Shown piece by piece: positions 3,001 to 4,075 of a stretch of 64,000 nucleotides of DNA. Location: assembly GCF_024298765.1 (NCBI RefSeq), contig NZ_CP101210.1; one strand, written 5' to 3'. The stretch comes from Escherichia coli. Its GTDB lineage: Bacteria > Pseudomonadota > Gammaproteobacteria > Enterobacterales > Enterobacteriaceae. Position 1 is the first letter of the stretch; every line of letters starts with the position of its first letter. A program made the position numbers.

Positions 3001-4075
3001 CACCTTTATGCCGCAAGAGATCCCGATGGCAGCCGGTGCGGTTGTGGTTTCGCTCTGTTCCACCTCTGATGAAACCATTGAAGAAGCCGAGAAAGATCTG
3101 CCGCGCAACCTCTGCCCGCTGATTAAAAGCAGCTACGGCTTTGGCAAAACCGATAAATGCCCCTACTTCTACTTTTCTGATCTGGTGGTCGGTGAAACCA
3201 CCTGCGATGGCAAAAAGAAAATGTATGAATACATGGCGGAGTTTAAGCCCGTTCATGTGATGCAGTTGCCAAACAGTGTTGAGGACGATGCCTCACGCGC
3301 GTTATGGAAAGCAGAAATGCTGCGCTTGCAAAAAACGGTAGAAGAACGTTTTGGGCACGAGATTAGCGAAGATGCTCTGCGCGATGCCATTGCGCTGAAA
3401 AACCGCGAACGTCGCGCACTGGCTAATTTTTATCATCTTGGGCAGTTAAATCCTCCGGCGCTTAGCGGCAGCGACATTCTGAAAGTGGTTTACGGCGCAA
3501 CCTTCCGGTTCGATAAAGAGGCGTTGATCAATGAACTGGATGCAATGACCGCCCGCGTTCGTCAGCAGTGGGAAGAAGGCCAGCGACTGGACCCGCGTCC
3601 ACGCATTTTAATCACCGGCTGCCCGATTGGCGGCGCAGCAGAAAAAGTGGTGCGCGCGATTGAAGAGAATGGCGGCTGGGTTGTCGGTTATGAAAACTGC
3701 ACCGGGGCGAAAGCGACCGAGCAATGCGTGGCAGAAACGAGCGATGTCTAGGACGCGCTGGCGGATAAATATCTGGCGATTGGCTGCTCCTGTGTTTCGC
3801 CGAACGATCAGCGCCTGAAAATGCTCAGCCAGATGGTGGAGGAATATCAGGTCGATGGCGTAGTTGATGTGATTTTGCAGGCGTGCCATACCTACGCGGT
3901 GGAATCGCTGGCGATTAAACGTCATGTGCGCCAGCAGCACAACATTCCTTATATCGCTATTGAAACAGACTACTCCACCTCGGATGTCGGGCAGCTCAGT
4001 ACCCGTGTCGCGGCCTTTATTGAGATGCTGTAAGGAGTGGCAGTGGCATATTCGATTGGCATTGATTCCGGCTCA

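Follow-up and report, generated by a model that had tools for sequence, protein, structure and literature searches.

Escherichia coli yjiM interrupted by an amber codon at position 290: a lineage-specific pseudogene in the double-cubane-cluster family

The yjiM gene carried by a 64,000-nucleotide stretch of Escherichia coli DNA (contig NZ_CP101210.1; the whole stretch analyzed is referred to here as the window) is an ordinary, recent, lineage-specific pseudogene that arose by nonsense mutation. A lone in-frame stop breaks a frame that is otherwise full length, close relatives have a sense codon at the same position, and the stop was seen in independent genomes. We consider it highly probable that the mutation is inherited within a sub-lineage of ST117, that translation ends at codon 290, and that the YjiM/YjiL system is off. 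The lesion itself is already known, as the same pseudogene is present in RefSeq annotation and the truncated protein has been deposited.

Positions 3749-3751 of the window read TAG in the local context GAT GTC TAG GAC GCG, and translation places this triplet at codon 290, in phase with the ATG at 2882, which is also the start assigned by RefSeq to the identical gene of strain 14EC020. Past the TAG the frame stays open until TAA at 4031-4033, for a total of 383 sense codons and a stop, the length of intact YjiM; 289 codons lie 5' of the TAG and 93 sense codons lie 3' of it (Table 1). The initial annotation had reported a single in-frame TAG in yjiM with coding sequence on both sides, which translation and the profile matches described below confirm. 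Its count of 289 codons upstream from 2882 was also correct, and its estimate of about 94 codons downstream becomes 93 sense codons.

Table 1 Features of the interrupted yjiM gene and the two genes that follow it, in window coordinates.
Feature	Coordinates	Strand	Basis
yjiM pseudogene, 383-codon frame interrupted at codon 290	2882..4033	+	Translation, NF040772, PF06050, identity to the 14EC020 gene
289-aa N-terminal fragment, predicted to be still translated, with motif cysteines C40, C59, C78, C108 and C273	2882..3748	+	Cysteine positions, NF040772 positions 1-275 of 372
Premature amber TAG, codon 290; mutated base G 3751; ancestral TAC (Tyr)	3749..3751	+	Three-way alignment with a carrier and the intact ST117-type allele
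93 codons predicted to be untranslated: C302 (3785-3787), C304 (3791-3793), C335 (3884-3886) and C-terminal helix	3752..4030	+	6ENO alignment, 7-Cys motif, NF040772 305-372
yjiL, intact gene for the partner ATPase (archerase/activase type), beginning 9 bases beyond the yjiM stop	4043..4810	+	TIGR00241 363 bits, PF01869 254 bits; identical to the 14EC020 gene
ytiA, intact, start overlapping the yjiL stop (ATGA); DUF3343, Se/S-carrier-like	4807..5064	+	PF11823 52 bits; 14EC020 annotation

Membership in the NCBIfam equivalog family NF040772 was judged by a score above its curated cut-off of 350 bits together with end-to-end coverage of the profile. With Tyr290 restored, YjiM scored 532.5 bits, its residues 14-383 aligning in a single stretch with profile positions 1-372 of 372, which places the locus in the family with an incomplete product: the 289-residue product as encoded scored 367.7 bits but covered only positions 1-275 of the 372. 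The restored protein also matched Pfam PF06050 (HGD-D) over residues 40-383 (profile 1-342 of 342), and the piece following the stop, taken alone, matched the C-terminus of NF040772 (profile 305-372, 106 bits, E 1.7e-30). Because the profiles, the solved homologue and the post-stop piece all align through the C-terminus, the two flanks of the TAG constitute one gene in one frame. The possibility that homologues terminate at codon 290, raised in the initial annotation as a refuting observation, was rejected, as the alignments to NF040772 and to the structure in PDB 6ENO each extend as far as the last residue. The YjiM and YjiL pair of E. coli has been named a likely second class (class II) of double-cubane-cluster system, with an unknown substrate (PMC7317905), and our literature search found no paper that tests the function of the E. 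coli pair. The family feature of an adjoining gene for an activase (archerase) type ATPase is present here as yjiL. Of the earlier label "dehydratase-like partner of the YjiL ATPase", the partnership with YjiL stands and the dehydratase part is superseded, the protein now being classed as a double-cubane-cluster anaerobic reductase (NF040772, PMC7317905).

The codon that preceded the stop was identified from complete genomes. We found yjiM in 5,381 of the 5,426 complete E. coli genomes searched, 61 of which hold a copy at least 99% identical to that of the window; in 11 genomes the identity is 100% over all 1,152 bases. The next-best copies, such as that of strain 2014C-3338, are 99.9% identical, the latter being annotated as an intact protein of 383 aa (WP_001695401.1). 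Direct alignment of the 2014C-3338 and window genes revealed one differing base in 1,152, a C to G at 3751 that converts TAC to TAG, and other E. coli YjiM alleles have DVYD at the same point. The sense codon expected from orthologues is thus TAC (Tyr) in 2014C-3338, with Tyr in the other alleles, and by these alignments the ancestral residue is Tyr290. The point nonsense mutation proposed in the initial annotation is borne out by this nearest intact allele, one base away. The C-to-G change creates CTAGG (window 3747-3752). This pentamer fits CTWGG, the context of very-short-patch repair in E. coli, a species in which CTAG is a rare tetranucleotide. In 2014C-3338 (NZ_CP027452.1), where yjiM is intact, the annotation lists the neighboring gene mdtM as a pseudogene on account of an internal stop, and scattered single-gene losses in the yjiM region appear common among ST117-like genomes.

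A 61-mer centred on the TAG matched exactly in 14 of the 5,426 complete genomes, a set that lies apart from the window strain itself, and had at least one mismatch in all the others. These 14 carriers belong to the 61 genomes with yjiM at least 99% identical. They were sequenced by different groups from sources that include human, chicken, other avian, pig, dog and wastewater, and the countries on record for the typed carriers are China and Canada. The exact 289-aa product occurs on 429 public contigs (NCBI, ENA, Logan), for example as BAX13828.1 and as EQP66811.1 of E. coli HVH 79, and the intact allele of the same type occurs on at least 1,000 contigs (NCBI, ENA, Logan protein collection). 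In RefSeq, the yjiM gene of 14EC020 (NZ_CP024138.1, CR537_RS21460) is labeled a pseudogene with the comment "internal stop".

Two of the carriers have been typed in published work: 14EC020 is ST117, O24:H4, from China in 2014 (PMC6206212), and MSHS 133, isolated from urine in Montreal in 2005, is ST117, O24:NM (PMC2874376). On the evidence of these two strains, the TAG allele existed by 2005 and occurs on two continents or more. Over its first 25 kb, the window is essentially identical to a group of genomes in which carriers and non-carriers of the TAG both occur. From these near-identical flanks and the ST and O group shared by the two carriers, we infer that the allele most simply arose once, within ST117. 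In this scheme, the C-to-G change at 3751 would have turned Tyr290 (TAC) into an amber codon in the ancestor of an ST117 sub-lineage, and the window strain would fall within that sub-lineage or very near it, both paper-typed carriers being of serogroup O24. The inactivation of yjiM is recent, since 11 of the 14 carriers contain no second change in yjiM and the window copies of yjiL and ytiA do not differ from the intact genes annotated in 14EC020.

Other truncated yjiM alleles occur at low frequency. Some change to a frameshifted tail after residue 255, 271 or 286, and others give shorter products that end at 275, 305 and 321; part of these may be contig ends or assembly errors. Loss of YjiM might have been selected rather than neutral, if shutting off an ATP-consuming anaerobic reductase aided the spread of the ST117 sub-lineage in poultry, other animals and humans. 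We regard this as improbable; were it true, the other low-frequency truncated alleles would be repeated cases of the same selection.

The expected consequence for the protein follows from the parts that lie beyond codon 290. Members of the DCCP family have a seven-cysteine motif, and in the solved protein six of the seven bind an [8Fe-9S] double-cubane cluster, with the seventh (Cys94) positioned beside it (PMC7317905). In the alignment to 6ENO, the cysteines of restored YjiM that match the motif are residues 40, 59, 78, 108, 273, 302 or 304, and 335. The ancestral frame therefore contains the complete motif and the encoded product does not, the last two cysteines being 3' of the stop; by descent the locus is in the double-cubane-cluster family, and its product, as read from the sequence, fails the defining cysteine motif. 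C59 appears to align with the non-binding Cys94, if the chain index is taken to run one residue out of step with the published numbering, in which case the stop at 290 would remove two of six presumed cluster ligands. In all, the stop eliminates the final 94 residues of YjiM. These include the counterpart of DCCP's C-terminal helix, which touches the ATPase partner in the solved complex and becomes ordered on binding (PMC9351452), and the sequence of this helix is well conserved between YjiM and DCCP (GQL-TR--AF-EM). Termination at codon 290 would release a 289-aa fragment with five of the seven motif cysteines, missing C335 and C302 or C304, and with no ATPase-docking helix. Because of these losses, such a fragment should be unable to build the cluster or to take electrons from YjiL, and the YjiM/YjiL system would be off. 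Loss of YjiM function is likely on these grounds; "inactivating", the word used in the initial annotation, is strongly argued for by the missing parts of YjiM, from which we infer the loss of activity.

Ribosomes that terminate at the TAG would leave the message 291 bases before the yjiL start. As a consequence, expression of yjiL and ytiA may be lowered in TAG carriers, through lost coupling or Rho action. Within the untranslated segment 3752-4042 there is one C-rich, G-poor part at about 3912-4010, with a C/G ratio near 1.6, which is suggestive at most of a Rho-type polarity signal. A promoter and terminator scan of 2600-5300 was uninformative: nothing resembled a promoter, and the two sites that resembled terminators were fewer than shuffled sequence gave.

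The stop could in principle be bypassed by a suppressor tRNA or by leaky termination, leaving yjiM down-tuned and still working. Tyr290 is not conserved in 6ENO and adjoins a 3-residue gap in the alignment, such that nearly any inserted amino acid should be tolerated and a rare read-through product would probably be active. The absence of further decay in yjiL, ytiA and the remainder of yjiM is also compatible with bypass, but is equally expected of a recent mutation. Natural read-through at UAG codons in E. coli amounts to roughly a percent or less, and a UAG with G as the next base has been reported as an efficient terminator. No tRNA genes were found in the 64,000-nt window by ARAGORN. We searched for suppressors with 41-mer probes that place a CTA anticodon in tRNA Tyr, Gln(CUG), Leu(CAA), Ser(CGA) and Trp; of the five, the Leu probe was the one checked against sequence. 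A sensitive search returned a median of 8 matches per genome and exact matches in 158 records, including the supE44 strains C600, DH5alpha, DH1 and J53, and the recovery of these supE44 laboratory strains indicates that the probes work. In a strict search, the probes were joined to the TAG 61-mer so that, beyond the TAG site itself, a match could be seeded by an exact suppressor only. This search yielded about 160 suppressor matches in other genomes, and no one-step amber suppressor of the Tyr, Gln, Leu, Ser or Trp type in the 14 carriers, each of which gave a single match, at yjiM. With the positive control working, the lack of a one-step suppressor of these five types in every carrier argues against bypass, to which we give only a slim chance. 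A low level of full-length YjiM may be present in carriers, and there is a small likelihood that yjiM retains useful activity.

Sequencing or assembly error in a strain that truly has TAC, the second option offered in the initial annotation, is scarcely credible. The window does have private changes in the length of base runs that are found in no other complete genome, from A7 to A6 in yjiK and from TTTT to TT in fimA, and because of these its assembly may contain errors. These oddities, however, are indels in base runs. The TAG results from a substitution, and one that recurs in 14 independently sequenced and assembled complete genomes, the whole gene being 100% identical in 11 of them, and the truncated product is found on 429 contigs; on this evidence the TAG is not a sequencing error and that alternative is rejected in favor of an inherited mutation.

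The two base-run changes and several further features distinguish the window. At 5769-5774, yjiK has six A where 14EC020 has seven, which shifts the frame and leaves ORFs at 5018-5821 and 5785-5988; a probe around this run had no exact match in complete E. coli genomes, and the change may be a frameshift private to this strain or else an assembly error in the base run. In fimA, which encodes the type 1 fimbrial major subunit, TT replaces the TTTT of relatives at about 24466-24468 on the minus strand. This 2-base deletion, seen in 0 of 5,426 complete genomes, yields ORFs at 24192-24494 and 24436-24795, and if real it would make the strain unable to produce type 1 fimbriae. Two substitutions relative to 14EC020, G to A at 6398 (yjiJ) and C to A at 35348, are likewise in none of the complete genomes searched. 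The nanM gene is interrupted at 29251-30307 by a 1,057-base IS903-type insertion sequence that is absent from 14EC020 and encodes an IS5-family DDE transposase; the element has terminal repeats GGCTTTGTTGAATAAATC... and a 9-base target duplication, GGTACAAGC. From 37344 to 64000 the window consists of a block absent from 14EC020. The block is attached at leuX, and of this tRNA-Leu gene no more than roughly the final 24 bases are left (37320-37343), with one base missing. Within the block are a DUF932 protein, a YeeP-like GTPase and, on the minus strand, an IS4-type transposase (54055-55260), together with a chaperone-usher fimbrial operon, its usher at 56546-59053 and its chaperone at 58984-59853, and a protein with an EAL domain (62130-62909).

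Programmed recoding of the TAG, by a non-standard amino acid or regulated read-through, has the open frame on either side of the codon in its favor and nothing more. The stop is not conserved among orthologues: the codon is a sense codon in homologues and in nearly all E. coli, the exact TAG 61-mer being confined to 14 of 5,426 genomes, the nearest allele is one base away, and NF040772 and 6ENO continue through the position with sense residues. To our knowledge E. coli has no pyrrolysine machinery, and its selenocysteine uses UGA. The allele distribution refutes recoding, the probability of which we put at practically nil. Equally negligible is a split gene, in which translation would start again at an ATG or GTG inside the gene and add a C-terminal piece to the 289-aa fragment as a second product: there are in-frame ATGs at 3821 and 3833, but inspection by eye of the 18 bases 5' of each in-frame start candidate after the TAG revealed no ribosome-binding motif, which makes a second working piece unlikely, starting again at 3821 would skip C302 and C304, so that neither piece held them, and the allele is a single substitution with no compensating change.

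As an inherited nonsense mutation, the TAG raises no new question on translation, recoding or enzyme family, and in these respects it matters little. It can serve as a single-base marker of one sub-lineage within ST117, a poultry-associated ExPEC clone. That sub-lineage also supplies natural yjiM mutants in which yjiL and ytiA remain intact, and these could offer a ready comparison when the substrate of YjiM is sought.

Among known genomes, the closest counterpart of the window gene is that of 14EC020, whose yjiM is 100% identical over 1,152 bases, TAG included, and whose 289-aa product is identical too. The two strains differ nearby: the window strain has its private changes in yjiK, yjiJ and fimA, its nanM is interrupted by the IS903-type element, and the island it carries at leuX is another one. 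The intact YjiM of 2014C-3338 has the same neighborhood (yjiN-yjiM-yjiL-ytiA-yjiK) and frame length and lies one base apart, with TAC in place of the TAG of the window. The other truncated E. coli yjiM alleles resemble the window gene in having lost the C-terminal part; their positions differ, and the events look independent. Beyond E. coli, the DCCP of Carboxydothermus hydrogenoformans (CHY_0487; PDB 6ENO, and 7YYL for the complex with the ATPase DCCP-R) is homologous to YjiM over residues 26-383 (E 6e-75). The seven-cysteine motif and the adjoining activase-type ATPase are common to both proteins (PMC7317905). DCCP is full length with an N-terminal extension, which YjiM lacks (PMC7317905), and, in contrast to DCCP, the yjiM of the window ends before the last two cysteines of the motif.
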